Shown one piece after another: positions 27,220 to 60,530 of a stretch of 64,000 bases of DNA. Where the stretch lies: assembly GCA_964016885.1 (NCBI GenBank), contig OZ024743.1:246512001-246576000 (forward strand). Reading direction: 5' to 3'. This DNA is from Eledone cirrhosa (Eukaryota). The translations under genes were made by a program, and so were the position numbers. A model generated the notes under the pieces. That model had not been told where the DNA came from. It did not search any database and saw only the letters and a list, made by a program, of their open reading frames with translations. Position 1 is the stretch's first letter. Every line of letters begins with the position of its first letter.

Positions 27220-27666
27220 CAGTGTAACGTGCAATTACTGTAGGTTCACCCCAGTGAGCACTCAATGCGTAGATTCCAGTCTGTAAAGAGGCGTAGAACT
27301 AAGCAGAGTGTAAATATAATGATAACAGGACGATTTGTTAATGTCTTTATTGTGGTTAGAAAAAGCTATCTCACTTACCGCTTTTCACAGGCGCCGCTAA
27401 ATTCCACTGCAGGTTACTCCTCTTCCACGTGCGTCCAACTGCTTAACACCGGGAGCTGCCCAAACTCGCGTCCACACCGTGTGCTGGTCACCACTAGAGA
27501 GAGGCCCTCTGCTGGCCCTTCCGGTCGAGCATCCTTCCGGCCAAAAGACCCTTCCGGTCGAGCACTCCCCCGCCTCCGGCCACCGCACGCCACACACCCT
27601 TCCGGTCGAGCACTCCCCCGCCTCCGGCCACCGCACGCCACACCATACCCACACGCCCCCCTGATC

Positions 27667-30538
27667 TCAAGGATCAATTTCCCCCTCGTCCCTCTGCATA
27701 TGAAAGTCTGCTGTCCAGGTCGGTGGTCTACGACTTCGTTGCGATCTTCGTATTATTGGGGCAGGGCTCTGGGTTTCCACCTCATCTTGGGTTTCCTCTT
27801 CCTCGGAGTCCGTCGACACAGTGATTCTTCTTACATCCAGGACATGACGTGGTACCCCGTCCACGGACACATTGTTCTTTGAATTTACGGCCGTCACCGT
27901 TCCCCTTCCCCATTGAGATGTGCAACGTGCATCTGGGGGCTTCACCCAGACTTCTTCGCCCACCTGCACGAATGCACTCTCTCTCCCCACTGGCCGTTGT
28001 GGTGGCGTGCACGGGTGCCGCCACTCGTATTTGAATACTGCTCTGTGTGGAACCGATTCCTCGACCTGTCCAACCCGAGGGGACATATTGTACCAGAACA
28101 CTGCCTCCATTGGTGAGATATGGCCCCGCTCCGCCATTGCCTTGATCGTCCGGTGGTGTCGCTCCACAATTCCATTCCCACTCGGCCTGTGCGCCGCTCT
28201 GAAGAAACGGTCCACCTTCCATCCATCGAGCATCTCCCTCAGTGCCTCCGAGCGGAACGCTGCGCTGTTGTCCATCAGCAGTTCGTCCACAGGGCCCCGC
28301 TCCAAGAACACTTCTCTCAACGTCCGCACGATTTCCTCGGCCGTTCCAGTCCTCATCTCCCTCCATATCGCCATTCGACCTGGTCCACAGTCGACCATCG
28401 AGAGGTACGTTCCCTGCCGGTAGTGCGTCACATCCACCGCTAATCACTTCCAGTCGCGATCCACCGGGAGGCTTCCCGTTTCGTGTACACCCGGGGCGGG
28501 ATCAATGGACTGACATCGGACGCAGCCTCTAACCCCCCCCCCCCCGAACACTGTGTCTGCTAACGTCCGAGTCGATTCTCCTGGCTAGGAACAGGCTCCT
28601 ATCCACCCCCATGTGGTGCATGTCATGCAACCCCTTCAGGTCTAACTCGGTCAGCCGACACACGGCAGCTATCTCATCCTCTACCTCCTTCGGCGCTTCC
28701 ATCCAGGCTGTCTTCACTCAAGTTAAGATGTCCGCCCTATTTTTCTCTGAGGGCACGAACACTACGCTCAGCTTCAGGTCGAACTCGGTGGCCAGCTCTC
28801 CTAACGTTCCCAGGCGGCGCTTTATCAGCATCTCCACCGCGCCTCTCGTTCGCACTCTCTTCTCACTGGTGAGCACTGATCTTACCCATCCGAGTACAGT
28901 AGCCGAGTCGGTGCGTATCTCGATGGTGCGCAGCCCCCACCGCAGGGCGAGGTTCACCCCTCTCAACACCGCGTCCAGCTCGGCCACATTGATGTGGCTG
29001 CAGTCGTCCTTCTTTCTAAGCCAGGCTGCATCCTCGACCTCAACACCTCCTATCTCCAACGTGACACTCAGCGCTATGCTGCTGGCATCGCACCATACGG
29101 TCCCGCTCTGTGATTTGGGAACGTACCAGCGTCCCCGCACTGGGTCGTCGGCCTTCACCCTCCCCACGATCTCCTGCATCATGGCCACCGTCCTCTCTCC
29201 CACTCTGTCACTCCAAGTCACCCCGCCCGCTCGTCTCTTGACATAGCTGCATGCTGTCCGGAGCCATCCAGCGATCGGGTAGTGACCCACCAGCTTTCCA
29301 CACACCGAGAAAAGCTCCCGCCTATTCATACTTGGGCCCAGTTCCGGAACTTCGTTTCCCCTCTGGAACACCAAAACGCCCGTCTTGTCTCGCCGTAGCC
29401 TAAGTCCCAGCGCGGCTCCTCCCTCCAATGCTTCTGATGGCTTCGCAGTCAGTCCATACTTCCGCAAATGGCTCGTGACCTCCGCCGTCGACACCACCGA
29501 CTCGTCCACTAGGATGTCGTCAATATAGGAGTTAGTAGCCCTCTTTATCTTGTCGGCCCTCCCCAGAGCGGTCTTGAGGACCGCCGCCATGATCTTCGGT
29601 GCGGAGCTCAGCCCGAAACCGAACCTGGTCAAGCAATATGTCCGGCCCTTATACCTGACCAGCTGATACCGCCAGAGCTTCTCATCTATATGCAGCTGCA
29701 AGTAAGCCGACTTTAGATCCACGATCGCTGAACCCCCCCGTCATGCGTCTCCACTCACGCAGGGTTTCCCCACAGACATCCGTGACCTCGCCACCCGTGT
29801 GGCATGACACGTGCTCGTTCAGCTCCCGATAGTCCAGCACCGGCCTCACCTTGCTCTTCGTGGGCTGCACCACCGCCAACAACGGCAATACTCCGCACTT
29901 CACCTCCTCCTTCCAGGGAAGCAGTATGCCCTCTTCGATCCATCTCTCTACTTCTCGCTCGAACTCGCTCCTAGCGTTTCCCTTCAATGTGTGTTGATAG
30001 CAGCCCACTTTGGTCTTCAGTGTTGGTGGTTCTCCCTTCCAGTACCACTCAACAACCCATCGCTGCCCATCAAACACGGCCTTGAAGTCTTTGTCCTGTA
30101 CAGTGTAAGCGGGGTATTCCTCCTCGTGGACCTTCTGGTTCTCATGACGTGCACTCACAGCGCATACCGATGCAGCGGCGCCAAACGACACACCGACATT
30201 GTTCACCGTGACGCCCCCTAGACGGCCAATCGCGTCCATGCCCATAACCACGCCGATCCCATCCACCACACTGTCTACCACGATGGCGGAAAGCCTTATC
30301 CTCCTTCTATTTCCATCTCGCTGCGACCTCGGCATTCAATTTTCCTGCCGTCGACTGCCCTTACGCTGCTCTTCCCTCCCCACCTCTGCGCCACCCCCGC
30401 GGTCACCAGTGTCGTCGTACAGCCCGTATCCACGAGGGCTCGCTGTGGCTTCCCCCTCACGAAGACTTCCACCATGGGCAGCGCCGCTACTCGTAAGGGG
30501 CAACTACCGGCGCAGTAGTTCTCCTTGGATCGTTTCCC
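27667..30538 (-). pseudogene. pol: pol (protease, RT, RNase H, integrase), frameshifted
   Basis: ALVDTG; RPVLDYR, DLKSAY, YIDD; WCDAS, HINVAEL, RTDS, NRAD; H..H zinc motif and DDE core with GNGIVER. Frame breaks occur, including at the poly-C tracts near 28533 and 29733. Confidence 0.9.
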
Positions 30539-31248
30539 TGGTCGCAGTTAGTAGCGATGTGGCCTGGTCGCTTACACCGGTAGCAAATTATCTCCGGCTT
30601 CGACTCTCTACAGTCTCTAGCCATGTGCGGGCCCTGGCACCGAAAACAGCGCCCCCTAAACGCACGCGGACGGCCGCGTGCCGAGGTTGCCTCCCTTTCA
30701 CCATTTCGCTGCCAGGTGTCCTGAGCCTCTGTAGTTGCTATCGCCGCAACACTCTTTTTGGCATCTTCCGCTATGATCCGGGCTTGTTCCACCAGTGAAC
30801 GCATTTCCATCTCTTTATAACCCGGGACTTGCTGCAGTTTCACCGCTATGTAGTCCGGAAATCCATTGATGAACGCCAACCGCACCGTGCGTTCGCATTC
30901 CGCCTGGTAACCGGCCAACATAGCCAACCGCTTTATTTCCGCTGCGAAAATGTCGACGCGCTCACCATTCCACCTGATTCTCGCCAGCTTAGCAAAAGCT
31001 GCCAACGGTCCTTCGGCGAATGCATCCATCAGACGCCTCTCAATCTTCTGCACATCTCTTTGGCTGTGCTCGTCCAACTCAAGGAAGAGTACCAGCGCGT
31101 CGCCCTCGAGGTACAATGCCATGAGGCCGGCCACGTCCTCTATCTTCTGCAAGCTTGCGACCAGCCGAACCATCCGCAGCCAAGCAACGACATCACCTTC
31201 CCCGGTGAATGCCCTGATAGCTTCGTTCATCCGTAGTCTTGTCGTCAT
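30487..31248 (-). CDS. gag: Gag with two zinc knuckles
   Basis: 253-aa open frame with CFRCQGPHMARDC and CYRCKRPGHIATNC. Confidence 0.9.
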   Translation of the reverse strand: MTTRLRMNEAIRAFTGEGDVVAWLRMVRLVASLQKIEDVAGLMALYLEGDALVLFLELDEHSQRDVQKIERRLMDAFAEGPLAAFAKLARIRWNGERVDIFAAEIKRLAMLAGYQAECERTVRLAFINGFPDYIAVKLQQVPGYKEMEMRSLVEQARIIAEDAKKSVAAIATTEAQDTWQRNGEREATSARGRPRAFRGRCFRCQGPHMARDCRESKPEIICYRCKRPGHIATNCDQGNDPRRTTAPVVAPYE

Positions 31249-31300
31249 CTTCTGATTTGTCTTGCGGCAAGTGGTTTTTTTTTTTTTTTTTTTTTTAGTC

Positions 31301-31312
31301 GCCGAAATAGCT
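31301..31312 (-). promoter_or_regulatory. Non-canonical primer-binding site complementary to tRNA-Phe(GAA) nt 1-12
   Basis: Element-sense AGCTATTTCGGC directly follows the 5' LTR; plus-strand GCCGAAATAGCT equals the start of metazoan tRNA-Phe as I recall it. Confidence 0.6.
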
Positions 31313-31785
31313 TCTGGTTAGAAAAAGCTATCTCACTTACCGCTTTTCACAGGCGCCGCTAAATTCCACTGCAGGTTACTCCTCTTCCACGTGCGTCCAA
31401 CTGCTTAACACCGGGAGCTGCCCAAACTCGCGTCCACACCGTGTGCTGGTCACCACTAGAGAGAGGCCCTCTGCTGGCCCTTCCGGTCGAGCATCCTTCC
31501 GGCCAAAAGACCCTTCCGGTCGAGCACTCCCCCGCCTCCGGCCACCGCACGCCACACACCCTTCCGGTCGAGCATTCCCCCGCCTCCGGCCACCGCACGC
31601 CACACCATACCCACATTTATTATGTTTATTGAGTAGTGACGTGTGTTTCGCTATTGATCAGCTCAAGGTTCAATCTGTATCGATCTGGCCCAGCTCTGGA
31701 ATCAAAAGCTCATCGGACCTCTGCTGTGGTAATGACAATAAACGTAATGAAGACATAACAAGTCACCCATTTATTATTATTATTA

Positions 31786-34700
31786 GTAAAAACCTTTAAA
31801 ACAAAAATTCCCCAACGCAGTTGGAGACTTCAGAGGGTCGATTACCAAGAGGATATACACTGACATCCTCTTGGAAACACCCATGACCAGCGAAAGGGAC
31901 GGTTCTACTGTCCCTTCACCACACGAACAAGGTAAGTGACCCTTTCTCACTTGCCCCGTTTCTCATCTAACATGGCCGTACTCAGAATAGGCAGTATAAA
32001 TTCACGTAGCCTGGAGTCATCTTGGAAGCAGGGTCACCTGCTCAACGACCTCAGGTCACTAAACATAGATGTGGTGGCCATCAGTGAAACCAGAATCTCC
32101 GAAGCACAAGCCTTCGCACCGATCTTCGGCGGCTACGATGTATACGCATCTCCCAGCCATCCAGGATCGGGGGGAGGGGTCGCCGTCCTTTTTCGGAGGG
32201 GCTTGGATCTCGCGATACGGGTCATCTTCCTAGACCCAGAAGGTAAGTCGGTGGTGCTGGACGTGACCGGCAGCGAAGGCAATGCTTTCAGGCTAGTAGC
32301 CGTCTACGCCCCAACAGGGGCAGGACGGCCAGGTTTCTTCAGACGTCTAGAGACCTTTCTTGGAACGTCCCGCTCTTTAGAGTTAGTGGGCGACTGGAAC
32401 GGTATCTTGGATGCACGCTGGGATCGTGTGGGGCTAGCGGATAGGGGAGGAGGGTGCAAGAGCCTCACCAACCTGCTCAGACGTTTTGAATTGTCTGACA
32501 GGTATCGACTGGATCACCCGAATGTGCCAATGTGGACATGGACAAACCGCATCGGGTCATCCAGATCGTATCTCGATAGGGTATTCTGCAGAGAACTAGA
32601 TAGGGCTAGTATAAGTTGTCCACAATTTAAAATAGTCGACTACACAGACCACAAATTTGTGATCTGTGAGATCGACATAGACAGACTTCATAGACAAGGG
32701 CCTGGTTACTGGAAGCTAAACGCGTCTTTCCGGGCGCGCAAAGCCTACAGAGACCCGATTAGCGTATTAGTTAAGCGGGCGTTGACGGGAGCGATCGTCA
32801 ACAACAGGTGGTGGTTCGCCCTGAAAAGGGCAATTAAAGTAGAGTGGATTAGGTTTAGCAAAGGAGTAGTGATAGAGGAAAATAGAGTAGAGGGAGAGCT
32901 AGTCAGAAAGCTAGAAGAGGCGTCTAGGACAGGCATCGCAACCGACGTTCTTGCAGAGAGATTGGCACTCGACCAATTCTTCAACGCAAAACACGAAGGC
33001 TGCGTTGTCAGAGCTAGAGCGCGTGCTCTGAAACACGAGGGGACAAAAGCCGTCCAATGGGCCTGGGTGGCAGAGGCGCGACGTGGCAACAAAGCTACAA
33101 TTCGGTCTTTGTCTGACCAAAATGGGTGCGTGATGCTCGGGTTCGAGCATCACGCACCCGTTTGCTCCCGAGCGGATGTGTGAAGCACCTGAGCGGATGT
33201 GTGAAGCTTTTCAGCAGCACTTTGCTGAACTGTTCAGGAGCGGCGGCGGCCCGGATCGGGGCATGGACTTCAGTGCATACCTCGACGGACTGCCTCGGCT
33301 CTCGACGACCGCAGCACAGTGTTGCGAAAAGCCAATAACAGCCGGTGAAATACGGGAGGCGATGGCTAACTGCACAAGGAGTAAATCGCCAGGTTTTGAT
33401 GGTCTGCCCTACGAAATTTATGCATTTAAGCCAGACTTGTTCGGTGACCTCTTGGCAGATGTCTACTGCAACTGGCAGCAGAACGGGAGCATTACCAGTT
33501 TTGTGAGCCGGGGAGCAGTGGCACTGCTGAGAAAAGACCCGAACAAGGGGGATGTTATCGATAATGTCAGGCCCATAACCCTGCTAAACGCAGAGTTCAA
33601 GATTTTGGCCAAGGTGTTAGCAACGAGGTTGGCGCTTGTCGTCAAGGGTCTGGTGGGAGAGGCGCAGACATGCGCCATTCCGGACAGATCCATACACGAC
33701 AACCTCCACCTCATGCGATACATCATAGAGAGGGTGGTTAAGGAACCTGGGGTGGGGCCCTGATCAACTTGGATCAATCCAAAGCATTCGATAGGGTCGA
33801 CCATCGGTACCTGGCGGCGGTCCTTGAGGCAGCCGGTTTCGGGCCCGTTTTCAGGGGTTGGATTGCAGAAATGTACAGCGACATCTGCTCAGTTGTGAGG
33901 GTGAATGGTCACCTGTCGCAGCCGTTCAGCATCATGCACTCAATCCGACAGGGTTGTCCCCTCTCGTCCCTCTCGTACGTATTGGCTCTCGAGCCGTTAC
34001 TGCACAAACTGGGGGCGATGAGGGGCGTCCCACGCGAACTAGGATGCAGGAAATCTGAGTCGGCTTACGCTGACGACGTCACCGTGGTGGTGTCGAGCAC
34101 CAGACACGTCCAGATGCTCGGCACCGCTCTCAAGGAATACGAAGCGGTGACAGGAGCAAAGATAAACCAGGAAAAGTAGGTGGGCTTGCAGCTCGGCACC
34201 TGGAGAGGCAAGTCCATGCTGTCCGACAGCGTCGTGGGGCGTTGGACAGACGGACCGGTTAAATTGCTCGGGGTCTGGTTCTGACCGGACCTCCAGATGG
34301 AGAAAAACTGGAACGAGGTGACGAGCAGCGTGGCCTCCCTCACCCAGAAATGGGCTGAGAGGAAGCTGTCCCTGAAAGGCCGGGCGGAGGTGGTAAATGC
34401 GTACATCGCATCCGTCATCTGCTACCGCCTCACCGTCGTCCCTTGCTCCAGCCCAACTCTCACCAAAAGGGAGCGCCTCCTCTTCCGCTTTTTGTGGAAG
34501 GGACGCGCTCCCATGGTCAGACGATCCATCTGCAGTCAACACCCGTTGCGTGGAGGACTGGGCATGCCATGGCTGATGATGCGCAAACATGCTCTGAGGC
34601 TGTGACATCTCTGGTGCTTCCTTGATGGTGAACAGGTGTGGTCGCCGTTCGCCAGGCACGTTTTCCCACAGCTCGTCTCCTTGACGGAGCTGCAGTCCTG

Positions 34701-35709
34701 GGTCAGAAAAAGACCGAGGGATAGCGCTTGGAAACTGGAATGTCTCCAGGCGCTCACTGCCCTCTGCCAGCTGGGCACCAGTATCGGTGGAACATCCACC
34801 TCGGCGTTCTATAGAGGACTAGTAGAGGGGAAGAGCGACAACATTCTCGGAGAGATCCTGGGCGTCAAAGAAGATCAGCTGTTTGCTCTCTTCCGGAGAA
34901 CTTTCAGCCCGGGGCCTATGGATAACTTCCAAAATTCCCTGGCCTGGCAGTGTTACCGGGGAGCGCTGCCGGTTCGAGATAAGCTCTACAGGCACGGAAG
35001 TGCCGTCAGCCGAGCCTGTTCGAGATGCGTGCAGAGCGATGAAACCATCGTGCACGCACTCGTTCAGTGCCCGAGCATTGCTGACTTGTGGAGCTATGTC
35101 GAACAGTTGCTGTCGCGTGTCGGACTGATCCGGTTGTCGACTGAGTCCTTTGAGGAGGAAAGGCAGGCGGTTTTCATCTGCCTGGTGGCCATGGCGAAAG
35201 AGATTGTGTGGTGGACAAGGTTAAAAGGGTTAAAGACAGATACTTTCCTCTTCGGCGAATCCCTAATTAACTTTTTCAAGTTTCACTTGAAGAGGAAAAT
35301 CAAGGTGGAGAGGCAAGTGCTGCCTTCTAGCAAGTTTGTTGAAAGGTGGGTGAATGTAGCGAGAATGGTCCGAGTGAACGGGACTACTCTGAATATACGT
35401 CTGTAGTTTGAGAGATAGAAAAATTGAGAGAGGGCGCTTGCCCTGGTGGTCGGGGTGGCCGTGGTCTTTTGTGTGGTTTTCGCCACGAGTAACCCTCGGA
35501 GGTTTCCCCCCTATTGGGGAATTTTCATTGTTTCAATTTTCATTTTTATTGTTTATATATATATATGTTTCTATGTCCTTTTTTTTTTCTTTTCTTATAT
35601 AAATAATAAAAATATTTACACGCACAAAACCCACATCGTACCGTCCTGTACCGTCCTGTGCCGTCTGTAATGTTTTTCTTGATGTCAGCCCTTGTGGCCA
35701 ATAAAGAAA

Positions 35710-45361: not shown

Positions 45362-45762
45362 CATTACTGTACCTTTAAGGTTTACTTTTTTTTTAAATAC
45401 AAATTTGTATATAACATAATTTCCTGCTATCAATAAATTATCTGATCAGAGCAAAAATTAAGTTTATCAGTTTGTCAAATTGTAAATTGAAATTAGTTTA
45501 TTTGGAAGAATGAGGCATATAATTGAAAAAAGGGGACGCATATTTTAGGGTTTGTTTAGAGCGTTACATACACAAGCACCGGTCACGCCTCTACTCAATT
45601 TCACTCAGAAGGCTTGGCTCGACCCAAAGCTAGGGGAGGTCAAAGTTCGATGCTAACAATGAAAATAAAAATTAAAACCATTCACTTTATCGTACATTCA
45701 CCTGACACTTATACTACACATTGCTATTAATTGATGTATTTCTGACTAGCAACGACACATTC

Positions 45763-45844
45763 GCTGCGATGGCCGAGTGGTTAAGGCGTTGGACTCGAAA
45801 TCCAATGGGATATTCCCGCACAGGTTCGAATCCTGTTCGCAGCG
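45763..45844 (+). tRNA. tRNA-Ser(CGA)
   Basis: 82 nt, acceptor GCTGCGA/TCGCAGC, anticodon arm TTGGA-CTCGAAA-TCCAA, long variable arm, GGTTCGAATCC, downstream oligo-T. Confidence 0.96.
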
Positions 45845-46274
45845 ACACGGCGCTGTTTTTTTTGTTTTTTTTAAAGTTATTTTCCTTTTCCATTTCTGAT
45901 TTCTACAGTCAACTGTTACTTCCTTTCTAGCAAAGTCTCGTAAACAATAAATGCCATTCACATTTCAGGCAACACTTAATCTATTTTGCCTTCCTAAGAT
46001 GTTGATTACTTAAATAAATACCCAGGATGCGACGCGGTGGGATCGAAGCCAATCCCTCATGATTGCGAAACTAACATCTTAACGACACTATCATTGTACA
46101 TTTTAGACATCTAAGGAGTGTTTGTATAATACACTTCGAGGAGAATATATAGTTTGTGGGGTTTAATAATGTTATGTCATCATTGTCTTATTTTCAGGGT
46201 TTAATAAACAAATTATCCCATCATTATCCCACCTCTAGTTTTTGAAAGTCTAGGTATTTGGCTCCTTTGGCTAG

Positions 46275-49469: not shown

Positions 49470-49512
49470 ATTGCTATTAACTGATGTATTTCAAACCAGT
49501 CCTGTCACATTT

Positions 49513-49594
49513 GCTGCGATGGCCGAGTGGTTAAGGCGTTGGACTCGAAATCCAATGGGATATTCCCGCACAGGTTCGAATCCTGTTCACAGCG
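49513..49594 (+). tRNA. tRNA-Ser(CGA) variant with an acceptor-stem mismatch, possibly a pseudogene
   Basis: Same as 45763-45844 except G>A at 49589 (C5:A68). Confidence 0.85.
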
Positions 49595-49760
49595 ACACGG
49601 CATTTTATTTATTATTCTCTCTATTTTTTTTAGAAGTTATTTTCTTCCATTACTGATTTCTACAGTCAACCGTTTCTTCCTTTCCCGCAAAGTCTCTTAA
49701 TCCATAAATCCCATTCACATTTTAGGCAATACTTTATCTATTTTTCCTTCCTAAGATGTT

Positions 49761-50295: not shown

Positions 50296-51912
50296 TCCTA
50301 AAATGTTGATTTCTGAAATAAACTAGCATAAAAACCACCATTCGGGCGGTTTTCTGCTAGCATGTGTAATGTGCATATTTATATTATATGCAAAGATACA
50401 TGCATGTAGATATATGTAAAATAAAATAATAATTGACAATATACAAAGAATTTGAAGAGAGACTGTGTTACACTGTCTTCTGTAATCAGTAACGTAATCC
50501 ATGATACATTTAAAAAAGACGATATTATATATAAACTGCATTACGGTGAAATGTAATGAAACCTTATATAACGATGCAAATATATGGATGTTTATATAAG
50601 CAATGTAATAAGTGTTATGATATAACGGACGCTAACCGAAAGTGTAGACATTTGAACATTTTACAAGAAGTGAATCTGAAAATAAGAATATTTATGTTTA
50701 ATCAACAACTACGAAATTTAGTAGATAAATTATGTAATATTCATTCATTATTTATTCAAAGTAATCTAACTTATTTTGCTAACGGGATAAAAAAAAATAT
50801 ATTCGGGACGCAGTCCCGCACTCCTCCCTTTATTATATACCCAAGATGCGACACGGTCGGATCGAACCCAATCGACACTATCATTGTACATTTTAGACAC
50901 TTGTGGAGTGTTTGTATAATACACTTCGAGAAGAATATCTTATTTGTAGGGTTTAATAATGTTGTCATCAATGTCTTATTTTTAGGGTTTAAGAAATAAA
51001 TGATCCCATCTGAGGTTTTTGGTAGTCTGGGTATTTAGCTCCCTTGGCTAGCCAGCCAGTATGTTCCTCTTTCTCCCAAATAAAATAATATCAGCTTACA
51101 ATTTGACAAGGTGATGAACCTAGTTTTGACATTTCTTGCTCTAACCACACTAAGAAAATGATTAAACCTGCATTTTCCACTACACAGTTCACACATACCC
51201 ACACCAAATCATGAACACAGTACGACCCCCTCAACCTCTTTGGGTATTTCTACAACACAGCTACGGGACAAAAATGTTTAGCGATTGATCGCAGGAAATT
51301 ATTGTATGCATTAAATTGTTGAAACGCTGGCAAAAACTGTAACATATGTAAGCAATACGTGGTTCTCGGTCGATGTTGGAGGACAGTAGCTTCAATAAAG
51401 TACCGACTTTGTCTGCAATGACCCGCCCAACCAATAATAGCTTGGAAAAAACGGACGTGAAATGATAACAATTATAATGGTTGTGGTGGTGGTGAATAAT
51501 CGTGATGGTGATAATGTTTCTACTTTTGGCACAAGGCCAGTGCATTTCTGGTACTTTATTTTATCGACCTCGTAAGGATGTAAGGCAAAATTAACCTAGG
51601 CGGGATTTGAATCCAGAAAGTAAAGGGACATAACTCTATGCTGCAAAGCATGTTGTCTGACGCTCTACCGATATTGCCAATCCACCGCCCTTGATGGTAA
51701 TAATGACGATGACGATGATGGTGAGTAATCAACACGTTAAGGAAACACAGACTAAGTGTTGTGTCTGAACTATGAATATAAGTTATAACTTACATATGAC
51801 CTCACTTTGCTGCAACAGACTGAGTGCTGACTATAAAACTCTGCATGGGAAACGGAAAAAAATTACGTGAAAACACACAAAATACAACAAAGCAGTGAAA
51901 TAAAACCTAAGC

Positions 51913-51994
51913 CGCTGCGAACAGGATTCGAACCTGTGCGGGAATATCCCATTGGATTTCGAGTCCAACGCCTTAACCACTCGGCCATCGCAGC
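51913..51994 (-). tRNA. tRNA-Ser(CGA)
   Basis: Reverse complement of 45763-45844. Confidence 0.96.
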
Positions 51995-52379
51995 GAACAC
52001 TTTTCAGAAGTGGAAAATAGAACACTTAATAGTGATGTCTGACAGAAGAATCAGGTGAATGTACGATAACGTGAATAATTTGAATTTTCTTTTTATAGTT
52101 GGCTCAGAACTTAGACTTTACGCATGCGTTTAAATCAACTATCAGAGATAAATTTAGTTATTTACAATACCTAAGAAACATTGTTTCAAATCTAAACGCG
52201 CCGTTACCTACTGTCTCTTTGAAAGTAGAGTGAAACAATTTAAAGAAACGTTTCGTTACTGGAGTTGGGGTTGTATAAGAGTCCCAGGTTCAGTTAACTC
52301 CGACTGTCAGAACCGACCCCACGACTTCAAAACGCTAGGTTATTTTTTCTTTTGTTTATTCTCTGATAAATTTTTATTG

Positions 52380-54255
52380 GTTTGTATCTGCCGGAAGTAC
52401 AAAGGTCAGTGACGTCATGGGACTCGAGGGCCTTTTTGGAAGCAAAAGGACGAGCGACAGCACGTGTGTGGAAGTAGGACCAGGGATCGGCCACCCGATT
52501 TTCGACTCCCGTACACAGAGGACGGTGTATTTTTGCCGCGTGAGCTCGGGATATATGTTTATAGGTTCTGGTCAGAGGTTAGGCATGATGTCTATAAGAT
52601 TCATATGGTCACTGCGCGTGACTGCAAGGGCAAGAAATGGAAGAGAAAAAGGATATTTGCGAATGACAGTTTTTTGGAGGGTACACACCTTGTCAACTCA
52701 TGTTAAGCTCATACTGAGCTTAACATGGGTCTATGTGACCGTTTTCGAAGAAACCTTTATCAACACGAACTACGACGTTAAATGTGACATTGATGCAGCA
52801 ATCCTCGCCTTCTTGCCACAAACGCTTTCTGGTGCCGTGCGTTGTGCATGAGCATTGTCTTCCTACTTTTCCTGGCGGTGGAGGACGCAGCCTGCCTCAG
52901 GAAGAAAGATGACTTCAACCACATGAACATGGCCGAATTGGACGTCATGCTGAAGGGAATGAATCTGGCCGTAAGATGGGGCTGCATCTATAATTCACAC
53001 AGAACAGCATTAAGTTATTTCACGAGCCGGCGGTTCCGTTAATCGAACAACTGAAAAACCACTGTACTCAGATGGGTGAGATCAGAAATCACCGATGTGA
53101 GGAGGGTACGAACGGAAGGGGATGCAAATGTGTTAATTAAGCGTCGTCTGGGAACTCTGGGAGTGGTAGCTGCCGAGTTCACCCTGAAGCTGAGCATGGT
53201 CTTTGTGCTCTCAGAAAGGAATAAGACGGACGTTCTAACCAGGGTGAAGAAAGATTGGAAGTGCCAGAGGATTCGGAGCGAGTGTGACTGCAGTGTGTCG
53301 GCTGAATGACTCGGAGCTAAAGAGACTGCATACCATACATCACATGGGAGTGGATAGGAGCCTGTTCCTAGCTAGGAAAGTTGACTCCGATGTTAGAAGA
53401 CAGAGTGTGCAGAAAGTTTTCAGGAGTTGTGATAGGTGTCGACCTCGCCCATGTATGAACGAGACGGGAAACATCCCAGTGGAACACAACTGGAAATGGC
53501 TGCGGATGGCAATATGGAAGGAAATAAATACAGATGAAATTGAATAAATGCTGAACGAGATATTCCTGAAGCGGGCCCCTAGAATGAGCTGCTGATGGAC
53601 AATGGCACTGCATTTCTCTCAGAACCGCTTAAGGAAATGCTTGATAAGTGGAACATGAATCGCTTCTTAAGAGCGACGTATAGGCCAAGTGGAAATGGAA
53701 TTGTGGAGAGACACTATCGCACGATCATAGCCATAGCGAAGAGGGGATATATATCACCAATTGAGGCAGTGTTTTGGTACAATATGTCGCCTCGGTCAGG
53801 CTAGGCCGAGGAGTCGATACCACACAAAGCGATATTCAGATATGAATAGTGACATGTGTGTAAGGAGGCACAGCGATCTGTGGAAAGGAGAACGCCTGCA
53901 TTTGTACAGGTCGGGGACGAAGACTGGGTCAAGCCGCCAAATACGAGCTGCATGTCTCGACGGGAGAAGAGAACGTGTTCATGGATGAAATGCCACGTCA
54001 TGTCTTGGATGTCTGCAGGATCATCGATTTGTCGGACGACAACGAAGAAGCAGGGGAGGATGCGAATAACGCCCAGCTCTGCAGAGATCACAGCGGGAGC
54101 ATCGTCCACCCAGATAGATGGCAGACTTTGACAGTGAGGTGATGGGGTGAGCTTTGATATCAGAGAGGGCGTGTGGGGCCGGGAGGAATTGCCGAAATAT
54201 AAGGTTCAGTGACGTCATACAGCGCGAGACCCTTGTTGGAGGCAGAAGAGCGAGT
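52380..54255 (+). mobile_element. Decayed Gypsy element related to 27351-31615 (RNase H to integrase, PPT, LTR pieces)
   Basis: VEDAACLRKKDD, HHMGVDRSLFLARK and RPSGNGIVERHYRT; GATCAGAGAGGGCG|TGTGGG; LTR-like similarity between 52385-52460 and 54185-54255. Confidence 0.8.
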
Positions 54256-57331: not shown

Positions 57332-58390
57332 TCAATGGGACCCTTGAACTTTATGGAGTCTAGCTAACTCTTTGACGTTAGGCTGTATTTTCCTAAGATG
57401 TAGCCGGAGATCTCCACGTGTAATTACATTGTAGCGGTTGCGAGCCTTACTGTGTAGTCTGAAAACAGCACCAAACCTCTTCTTGACTAAGTATGAGCTT
57501 GGAAAAGGCAGAGCAAATCTCTTAGCCTCTGCATGTAGGTGTGGAAATCGACGCTGAATTTTCTCTTGCATCCAAAAAAGGGGTTCACCTATTTTGGGAA
57601 ATCTAATTTTGATCATGTCATCTGCTTGAAGTTCAATGAATTCTTCCTGAAATATAACGTCCAAATCGTCGACGTTAGCTACGAAGTGATCTGCTACCCA
57701 CATTGGGATGTCCATCGACAAAAGGTCGACAAATGGTTCTCTCGTGTTGTTTTGTAGCGCACGGAGGTGAGCGGTATAAATTTTGAGTTGGTCATCGCTT
57801 ACAATGTTTTGAACATTGGCGACACTAGGAAAATTATAGAATTCCCGTCAAACAAAGATTCCTTTCGATGACATTCAATTTGGCCAGGAATGTTTTCACA
57901 GCATTCCTTGCTTTAAGTAAGGTGATCTTCTGCCCCTGCAAAGCCAAAATGACGCTATTGCATTTGTCGAAGATGTCGGTGAGGTAGGCGCAGTTTTGCC
58001 TCACATCGAGGGTTTTCTTGTACAGTTGTGTTGCGTCCTCGCAGAAACTGAATGATAGAGTCGAACAGTTCAAAGAAGTGAGTAAGGCACTTGCCTTTTG
58101 AAAGCCACCTCACTTCAGTATGAAGGAGCAACTTGACGAATTCTTCGTCATTATCTTGGCACAGTTGCCGGAAAATTCGTTCATTGAGGAAATGCCGTTT
58201 GATAAAATTGATGACATCAATGGCCACCTGCAAGGACTTGCTCAGCGGCTTACTGAGTTTCTTCGCAGCCAAGTGTTGTCGATGAATGACACAATGAACA
58301 ACAAATACAGATAGATTTTCTCTCTTCAGAAGAGTGACGAAACCCTTATGCTGGCCGACCATTGCTCTTGCGTCGTCCGTAGCACATGAT
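57332..58390 (-). pseudogene. hAT transposase remnant, Buster/Charlie type
   Basis: HCVIHRQHLAAK, LLHTEVRWLSKG, YLTDIF, FPSSYLV, RGDLRL and QGSH* motifs; frameshifted. Confidence 0.88.
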
Positions 58391-58394
58391 ACAC

Positions 58395-59314
58395 TGTGTG
58401 TTGTATTTGGTCCTAGATGTATGTATACCTGCCTGTGTGTTGTAGGTAGTCCTAGATGTATGTATTACCTGCTTATGTATTGCATGTGGTCCCAGCTGTA
58501 TGTATTACCTGTTTGTGTGTTGTATGTGGTCCTAGATGTGTGTATTACCTCCTTATGTGTTGTATGTGGTCCTAGATGTATGTATTACCTGATTATGTGT
58601 TGTATGTGGTCCTAGATGTTTGTATTACCTGCTTATGTGTTGTATGTGGTCCTAGATGTGTGTATTATCTGATTATGTGTTGTATGTGGTCCTAGATGTG
58701 TGTGCTACCTCTTTATGTGTTGCATGTGGTCCTAGATGTGTGTATTACCTGCTTATGTGTTGTATGTGGTCCTAGATGCGTGTATTACCTGCTTATGTGT
58801 TGTATGTGGTCCTAGATGTGTGTATTATCTGATTATGTGTTGTACATACATTTAGGACCACATACCTGTCTGTGTGTTGTATGTGGTCCTAGATGTATGT
58901 GCTACCTCCTTATGTGTTGCATGTGGTCCTAGATGCGTGTATTACCTGCTTATGTGTTGTATGTGGTCCTAGATGTGTGTATTATCTGATTATGTGTTGT
59001 ATGTGGTCCTAGATGTGTGTGCTACCTCTTTATGTGTTGCATGTGGTCCTAGATGTGTGTATTACCTGCTTATGTGTTGTATGTGGTCCTAGATGCGTGT
59101 ATTACCTGCTTATGTGTTGTATGTGGTCCTAGATGTGTGTATTATCTGATTATGTGTTGTACATACATTTAGGACCACATACCTGCCTGTGTGTTGTATG
59201 TGGTCCTAGATGTATGTGCTACCTCCTTATGTGTTGCATGTGGTCCTAGATGCGTGTATTACCTGCTTATGTGTTGTATGTGGTCCTAGATGTGTGTGCT
59301 ACCCGCTTCTGTGT
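58395..59314. repeat. 40-bp minisatellite, about 23 copies
   Basis: Unit TGTGTTGTATGTGGTCCTAGATGTGTGTATTACCTGCTTA. Confidence 0.95.
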
Positions 59315-60530
59315 TTTTTCTTTTTTTCTTTGTAATATTATTTATACAATAGGGAATAAAATAGATCTACATAGTGTTAACTCGTTACGGTTGAGTCAAT
59401 AATTTATAAGATTCTAACTGGCTGCACTCAAAGTGTCCTTGACCCAGTTGACTGTGGGTTTTTCCATTATTAGGATCTCAATTGCCCGTTAATGTCGAGA
59501 CACGTCTACACACCTGCTCACAGCTGCGTTCAGACCATAGTTATGCTGTCTGCATGCTCATTCAAATCCATTCACACTAGGTGTTTCAAAGACTTACAAA
59601 TATGGCTTATAAAACTTACCAAAGTAAAGAGCCTACCAGTGCCCCTCAGAGCTCCAAATTCCCCCCCCCCCCTGCCCCCGTTGAGAACTTTCGTTCTAGA
59701 CAATTACCGTCATCATATACTTATTGTTTTTCATATCCGCTCAAGCAACTTTCTTGTATTTCTAGAAAATGCATATATAATATGCCTATATAATTTGTAC
59801 ATGGGCACAGCATGGCCAAAGGGTTAATAAGTTAGATTTGCAATCCTAAGGTCTACAGTTCGATACTACTATGTAGCATCTTGGGTGAGTGTCATTTATC
59901 ATAGCATCGAGTCAACTTAAGTCTTTTTAGTGGAACTGGGTTGACCAAAACTGTTTGGAAACTGCCAGATAAACCGTACCTGTAATTCACACAGAATAGC
60001 GTTAAGTCATTTCACCAGCAGGCTGTTCTGTTGATCGAACAACTGAAACACTCATCATCGAAACTGGTGGAGGTTCATTCAAGAATTTATCCATAGAATA
60101 ATTATTTCAAAAAAGTTATAAAAAAGAAACAGAATGCAAAGATAACAAGAACAACAAAAACAGACATGAAAAACTGAAGCTGTTTATTCCATTAAATAAA
60201 TAAAAATAACAAAAGAGATGTTTGTTCTCTTATGTATTATTTCCATGCATTTCCGTTCTTTATAGCCATCAGGCACTATATATTTTTACGATTGACAAAC
60301 TGATCTGATAACATCAGAATTATTAAGAAGTAGATAGAAGTTACCGAACGTTTTATGTTTATCGAAGCCGGCAAGAAATCAGTTTGTAAAGGAATTAAGT
60401 CGACAATTTATTTCCAAAACGAACGTTCTACATCAAAACCATTAGGTTTCTTTTTTTTAGCTTGTCGATAGATGAATAAAACCCACAAAATTTGGGTTCC
60501 AGAAACAAAAGCAGAGATACACACACACAC

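Follow-up and report, generated by a model that had tools for sequence, protein, structure and literature searches.

A Gypsy-order LTR element with a candidate primer-binding site complementary to the 5' end of tRNA-Phe

Three types of primer are distinguished in the accessible text of a survey of plant LTR elements: whole tRNAs, half-tRNAs cut in the anticodon stem and self-primers, with half-tRNAs found, in that plant survey, in Ty1/copia lineages only (PMC6317226). In canonical priming the primer-binding site (PBS) lies after the 5' LTR and pairs with the CCA end of a tRNA; tRNA-Phe can serve in this way, as in some errantiviruses (available part of the PMC13524379 supplement), and the corresponding PBS starts with TGG. 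In half-tRNA priming, described for copia, Ty5, Osser, Bryco, Bianca and FunCo1, the primer is a 5' tRNA fragment and not the CCA end, the cut falls in the anticodon stem and internal nucleotides pair with the element (accessible text of PMC6317226 and, for FunCo1, of PMC5445492). In Tf1, Tf2, Tj1 and the Tf1/sushi elements, an LTR-adjacent PBS pairs instead with the 5'-terminal 11–12 nt of the element mRNA, which must be cut to yield a 3'-OH (PMC7175516 and PMC4600332, as far as available); the Tf1 RNase H cuts this 11-nt 5'-terminal RNA duplex between bases 11 and 12 (PMC7175516), and the order in which such cut-to-prime chemistry and tRNA priming originated is an open question in the available text of PMC3601003. 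Two further systems involve sequences at the same position: the fungal GalEa elements carry a Conserved Hairpin Site, a 9-bp palindrome with a downstream partner (accessible text of PMC5445492), and a 31-nt 5' fragment (5' tRF) of tRNA-Asp has been tied to the PBS of plant Gypsy elements, in a regulatory and not a priming role (accessible text of PMC11962134).

Here we analyse an LTR element of Gypsy domain order, located within a stretch of 64,000 nucleotides of Eledone cirrhosa DNA (hereafter, the window). The element spans 4,265 bp on the minus strand (31615-27351) and is bounded by LTRs of 303 bp each (5' LTR, 31313-31615; 3' LTR, 27351-27653), which are identical at 301/303 positions and differ at 2. 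The 5' LTR's end was fixed by comparison with the 3' LTR and by the ATAAA target-site duplication (TSD) present on both flanks (31616-31620 on the 5' side, 27346-27350 on the 3' side). Both LTRs start with TG; the 5' LTR terminates in CCAGA, a one-base change (C to G) in this copy, since the 3' LTR and the sister copies read CCACA. Within these limits are gag (30487-31248, minus strand), containing the motif LYLEGDAL and two CCHC knuckles (PF00098), a fragmented pol (27667-30335, minus strand), with a protease region and the start of RT, an RT-DUF7047-RNase H part (YIDD; D-E-D-D) and an integrase (rve), and a polypurine tract (PPT; 27654-27668, minus strand), whose G-run is followed by a 2-nt spacer (CG) and the TG of the 3' LTR. 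A short PPT-LTR spacer, mostly CG, was likewise present in L074, a relative from a metagenome, and in seven of the nine other host elements for which a match was obtained.

The domain order Gag-PR-RT-RNase H-IN (PF00098; PF00078, weak and partial; PF13456/PF00075; PF00665), the TG...CA LTR pair, the short TSD and the G-rich PPT before the 3' LTR are all structural characters of Ty3/Gypsy elements, with the protease region recognised solely by likeness to a second metagenome relative, L073. The RT-RNase H stretch had no PDB match at E 0.01, the ESM Atlas returned only unnamed or RVT_1 clusters, and the RT motifs do not occur in the readable supplements of a mollusc LTR survey. The element had been described as young on first reading; this holds for the insertion, but comparison with the open pol frame of L073 reveals that two frame changes, near 29736 and 28510, break pol, so that the insertion is recent but broken. 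The element appears to be nested in a high-copy host repeat: contig depth climbs sharply past 31616, and loose ends beyond this position resemble, by eye, the opposite flank (27311-27350 versus 31616-31700), both of which agree with the boundaries called here.

Immediately after the 5' LTR, with zero gap, comes the 12-mer AGCTATTTCGGC (31312-31301, minus strand), followed by GACT and a run of 22 A (31275-31296, minus strand). This 12-mer is an exact 12/12 complement of nt 1-12 of host tRNA-Phe(GAA) and the match does not extend to nt 13. The preliminary description had given this as the start of metazoan tRNA-Phe, and the host genome (G000), in which we searched for element copies and tRNA genes, bears it out, since its tRNA-Phe(GAA) genes start GCCGAAATAGCT-CAG. 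In this genome we counted 853 occurrences of the 12-mer's complement versus 24 of the reversed control, which contains one more CpG and so understates the chance level. Among these matches, 247/853 continue with CAG, as in the 15-mer start of tRNA-Phe, many of them in a tandem array; ARAGORN identified the 12 CAG-continuing places that we fetched as tRNA-Phe(GAA) starts wherever it called a gene, and two of the tRNA-Phe loci (L062 and L063) scored 69.8 bits with Rfam RF00005. For a fixed 12-mer and a set of 100 tRNAs, the likelihood of complementarity to the first 12 nt of one of them is roughly 6e-6, and we reject a chance match. Also as first noticed, there is no TGG-type PBS: none of 11 representative elements has a TGG in the 10 nt that follow the LTR, and we reject canonical priming by a tRNA 3' end. 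The tandem array has a unit of ca. 1.26 kb with tRNA-Phe(GAA) and tRNA-Asn(GTT) and covers G000:C4:117.36-117.54 Mb and beyond (L065-L072); well over 90 units were counted among those listed, many showing changes in the acceptor or T stem.

A site complementary to tRNA nt 1-12 fits none of the three primer types distinguished in the accessible text of PMC6317226. It shares its position with the canonical Phe PBS, but that site pairs with the CCA end and the window site with the other strand of the acceptor stem. With half-tRNA systems it has in common the 5' portion of a tRNA; it differs from them in pairing from nt 1, in a cut that would fall in the D stem, in the use of tRNA-Phe and in belonging to an element of Gypsy domain order, and a Hemivirus-type half-tRNA PBS was rejected because the match covers tRNA-Phe nt 1-12 and not the end of the anticodon arm. 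It resembles the Tf1/sushi group in the pairing of an LTR-adjacent site with a 5'-terminal segment of 11–12 nt, although there the 5' end is that of the element mRNA and here it is that of a host tRNA, the LTR lacking an 11-12-nt complement. Like the GalEa hairpin site, it is a conserved non-TGG sequence placed right after the LTR and able to form a hairpin; unlike it, it is not palindromic (self-complement of 4 of 12, and 2 of 12 in L074, by which we discarded a palindromic site) and has a 12/12 match to a tRNA.

Conservation of the 12-mer was evaluated on elements selected by Gag and not by the site itself: 137 loci were retrieved with Gag queries and, leaving out three loci that had been chosen via the 12-mer, they corresponded to 79 distinct places in the host genome. 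The 12-mer was exact in 66 of these places and carried one change in 10 and two changes in 1; the other two had no recognisable site, one of them with a deletion inside it. The 12-mer is thus conserved in divergent copies selected by Gag, a point on which the first interpretation depended. The site followed directly after CA in 75/77 places, and in LTR-pair comparisons of 20 hand-picked divergent elements the end of the LTR coincided with the site wherever both ends were intact. Furthermore, the 12-mer was kept in subfamilies with ca. 90, 84, 78, 72 and 60% Gag identity, despite their differing U5 ends. A search of the host genome with a pattern leaving the six central bases free retrieved 603 matches versus 59 for the control; by hand count, the first 100 matches listed comprised 82 exact sites, 13 near variants (11 of them changed at CpG) and 5 unrelated sequences. 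Foreign Gag and Pol queries against the host genome yielded the same family group among the best candidates, and no sister clade using another tRNA. One host contig, C994, contains several copies at a spacing of ca. 10 kb.

The conserved block has sharp limits. Mean pairwise identity among nine representatives was 0.96 at +1..+12 and 0.38 at +13..+24, and upstream it was 0.67 at -12..-1 and 0.40 at -24..-13, bearing in mind that six host representatives were anchored on -3..+5 and that these positions are therefore fixed by construction. Position +13 shows three different bases and +14 shows four, so that conservation ends sharply at the base that pairs with tRNA nt 1. The 22-A run differs in length from copy to copy and is lacking in divergent families; it therefore lies outside the conserved site, and we rejected it as part of the PBS.

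A Gag profile retrieved two metagenome loci outside the host genome, L073 and L074. The first has a Gag only 34% identical and an unrelated LTR and, although it was picked by Gag, it carries the exact 12-mer after CA at 361-372. The second, with 53% Gag identity over the N-terminal part, has AGCTATCCCGGC after TACA, with two changes with respect to the 12-mer, both in the part matching the acceptor stem. Neither locus has a second LTR, and hence their LTR ends are deduced from the CA plus 12-mer. The complement of AGCTATCCCGGC starts at least 52 tRNAs called by ARAGORN (34 tRNA-Phe, 16 tRNA-Thr and 2 other) among the 80 prokaryotic loci listed; judging from these sequences, it is a natural tRNA-Phe start, the matched tRNAs being prokaryotic and not from the host of L074. 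A search of viral contigs did not yield a tRNA-Phe start of animal type that matched L074. In these contigs the Gag profile produced zinc-knuckle matches only, and a Pol profile applied to them and to contigs of prokaryote genomes found nothing. Named relatives by likeness of Gag or Pol come from Octopus, cuttlefish, gastropods, crustaceans, Nymphon, Watersipora and Hydra, and the four D-E-D-D residues of RNase H are kept in, respectively, 43, 44, 44 and 34 of 45 aligned relatives. Positions 1775-2060 of L074 belong to two tandem elements with one common LTR, where gag begins ca. 15 nt after the PBS.

Because the same bases can fold back on U5, as was already pointed out in the preliminary description, the site could pair with the RNA of the element itself (the U5 arm, the transcript start or a spliced LTR junction), the match to the tRNA being incidental. 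The fold-back is indeed predicted: in the window subfamily, an arm at 31334-31325, included in the U5 end (31317-31334, minus strand) and overlapping a pyrimidine tract, pairs with the PBS with -15.1 kcal/mol, and the hairpin is predicted in every host subfamily tested (the region folds at -7.7 to -15.1 kcal/mol), where U5 changes often preserve it via G-U pairs; it is weak in L073 and L074. Still, the arm is placed ca. 12-22 nt from the LTR end, and a primer cut there would give a cDNA of only ca. 14 nt, probably too short to be useful. The site is invariant while U5 changes, which is the opposite of covariation, and in divergent families the U5 pairing is weaker or lost. To this extent, the data argue against a site that covaries with U5 rather than with the tRNA.

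Elsewhere in the element the complementarity is poor. The best ungapped LTR complement of the PBS has 7-9 of 12 Watson-Crick pairs in 11 representatives, and scanning the window element and L073 in their entirety revealed no complement above 9 of 12; the duplex of the PBS with tRNA nt 1-12 has a predicted energy of -18.7 kcal/mol versus -9.8 to -12.5 for the best LTR:PBS duplexes, which are near the values for shuffled LTRs. Tf1/sushi-type self-priming on the LTR, which would involve a perfect complement of 11-14 nt, was rejected on this basis. Spliced junctions fared better in part: scoring every GT-AG junction in the LTR, against a shuffled mean of ca. 8 and maximum of 9-11, gave 10 of 12 Watson-Crick pairs in 6/10 representatives. 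However, these matches borrow from the U5 arm, their donors differ between families and those of the other four representatives (L184, L187, L073 and L074) are at chance (7-8), and we also rejected self-priming across a splice junction. On balance, we regard priming by the element's own RNA as distinctly unlikely.

A different possibility is that the 5' end of an intact tRNA-Phe binds without being cut, either priming from an internal 2'-OH, in a retron-like branch, or acting as a scaffold or for packaging with another primer. This would fit the sequence data equally well, and the tRNA could be held by the bipartite duplex predicted by co-folding. Co-folding with the whole tRNA was favoured over separate folding in 9/9 representatives (ddG -4 to -16 kcal/mol), all with a predicted two-part duplex in which the PBS pairs with nt 1-12 and U5 with ca. 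nt 15-25, around an internal loop at the LTR CA. The second block, between the U5 pyrimidine tract and tRNA-Phe nt 15-25, is marginal and should be taken as a lead only: its shuffle p values were 0.03-0.14 in seven host types, versus 0.28 in L073 and 0.57 in L074, and nt 13-27 of tRNA-Ser score as well as tRNA-Phe in several representatives. We consider an uncut tRNA unlikely, since the zero gap and the sharp 12-nt block suit a 5'-terminal primer that is copied, and no other primer site was found; besides, to our knowledge no LTR element primes from a 2'-OH. The primer might otherwise be another host RNA whose 3' end, or whose anticodon-cut half, finishes in the 12-mer, which would reduce the case to ordinary 3'-end or half-tRNA priming. 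A half-tRNA cut in the anticodon loop needs a U before the anticodon, and the 12-mer has neither this U nor a CCA end. For this reading, the genomic matches inspected amount to 30 + 12 of the 853, and the first 30 listed were 25 element copies, 1 tRNA-Phe start and 4 unrelated DNAs; as 247 of the 853 continue as tRNA-Phe, we deem another host RNA very improbable. We give equally little credit to the site being a relic or a regulatory target of 5' tRNA fragments with no role in priming. Such fragments are reported to act on LTR elements (accessible text of PMC11962134), but the site occupies the exact position of a primer with no other PBS present, and it is kept at 34% Gag identity, and an element would not be expected to keep a target for its own silencing.

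Together, comparative sequence data indicate that minus-strand synthesis is probably primed by a short 5' piece of tRNA-Phe, whichever the nuclease that produces it; this is the interpretation advanced in the preliminary description, which is supported, except that the primer may be 10 nt instead of the ca. 12 nt proposed and that priming itself is inferred. The RNase H route accounts for about half of our confidence in it. In a first step, strands would be exchanged between the U5-PBS hairpin and the acceptor and D stems of the tRNA, leaving tRNA nt 1-12 on the PBS and, with less certainty, nt 15-25 paired with U5 around the internal loop at the LTR CA. Since nt 13-15 mismatch the terminal bases of the LTR and a paired 3'-OH is needed, the tRNA would have to be cut or trimmed, to give a 3'-OH after nt 12 or, should the AG following CA represent a 2-nt overhang, after nt 10. 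The shorter length is suggested by the 2-nt spacer at the PPT end, which an AG overhang would match by analogy with retroviral ends. The cutter would most likely be the element's own RNase H, acting on the template as in Tf1 and with the tRNA as target in trans; the main alternative, about as compatible with the data, is a D-loop fragment made by the host and trimmed back to the duplex. Plus-strand synthesis would then copy the whole primer up to the 5' end, and the exact limit of conservation at tRNA nt 1 would be accounted for in this way. More tentatively, and with somewhat more doubt than confidence, we propose that a whole invertebrate clade of Gypsy-order elements with a DUF7047 pol primes from the 5' end of tRNA-Phe, which would be annealed and then cleaved after nt 10-12 by the elements' own RNase H, a fourth priming mode that uses Tf1 chemistry in trans and that, if true, would form a bridge between self-priming and tRNA priming.

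In our search of the accessible literature, subscription articles, Repbase annotations and the first publications on Cigr-1 and Tor excepted, we found no description of an element that is primed by the 5' end of a tRNA bound to a complementary PBS. The words PBS and tRNA are absent from the main text of mollusc and annelid LTR surveys. According to its available text, the PBS search in PMC13524379 used only the last 12 nt of tRNAs and could not have called a site of the window type for this reason, and the start of the window PBS is absent from the supplements available for that paper. More generally, PBS searches with tRNA 3' ends only would score these elements as lacking a PBS. Confirmation of priming would assign a role in replication to a very short 5' tRNA fragment, and would link the cut-to-prime chemistry of Tf1 with tRNA priming. 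A further prediction is that competition at these elements would come from 5' tRFs and not from 3' tRFs. With ca. 600 sites in the host genome, the family is abundant, so native cDNA should be within reach.

The leader also contains putative splice signals. A donor-like GT(A/G)AGT is present in U5, 20-28 nt before the LTR end, in 8/9 representatives (among them the window element, as GTAAGT at 31340-31335 on the minus strand, L178, L181, L176, L184 and L187), with none in L074, and in several subfamilies the gag ATG is preceded, at a distance of 5-15 nt, by a pyrimidine tract and YAG, the tract being lost in the window subfamily. These signals predict a leader intron whose removal would eliminate the PBS from the mRNA and would separate translated from genomic RNA. 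No splice joint was seen in contigs from two runs whose kind is not recorded, and these contigs skipped the A-run; neither observation bears on the priming claim.

Other mobile and repeated sequences occur in the window. Head to head with the LTR element lies a non-LTR element (31936-35406, plus strand), in which RT-like frames accompany an APE-type endonuclease (PF03372), and related non-LTR copies are found at ca. 9.5-15.7 kb on the minus strand. A decayed relative of the same LTR clade (52900-54170, plus strand) retains an RNase H-integrase part ca. 73% identical, with a PPT-like tract and a TG start near 54160. Three tRNA-Ser(CGA) genes are located in repeated flanks (45762-45846, 49512-49596 and 51911-51995), and there are two tandem repeats, a perfect 62-bp repeat from 1 to ca. 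2400 and a 40-bp repeat at 58300-59320.
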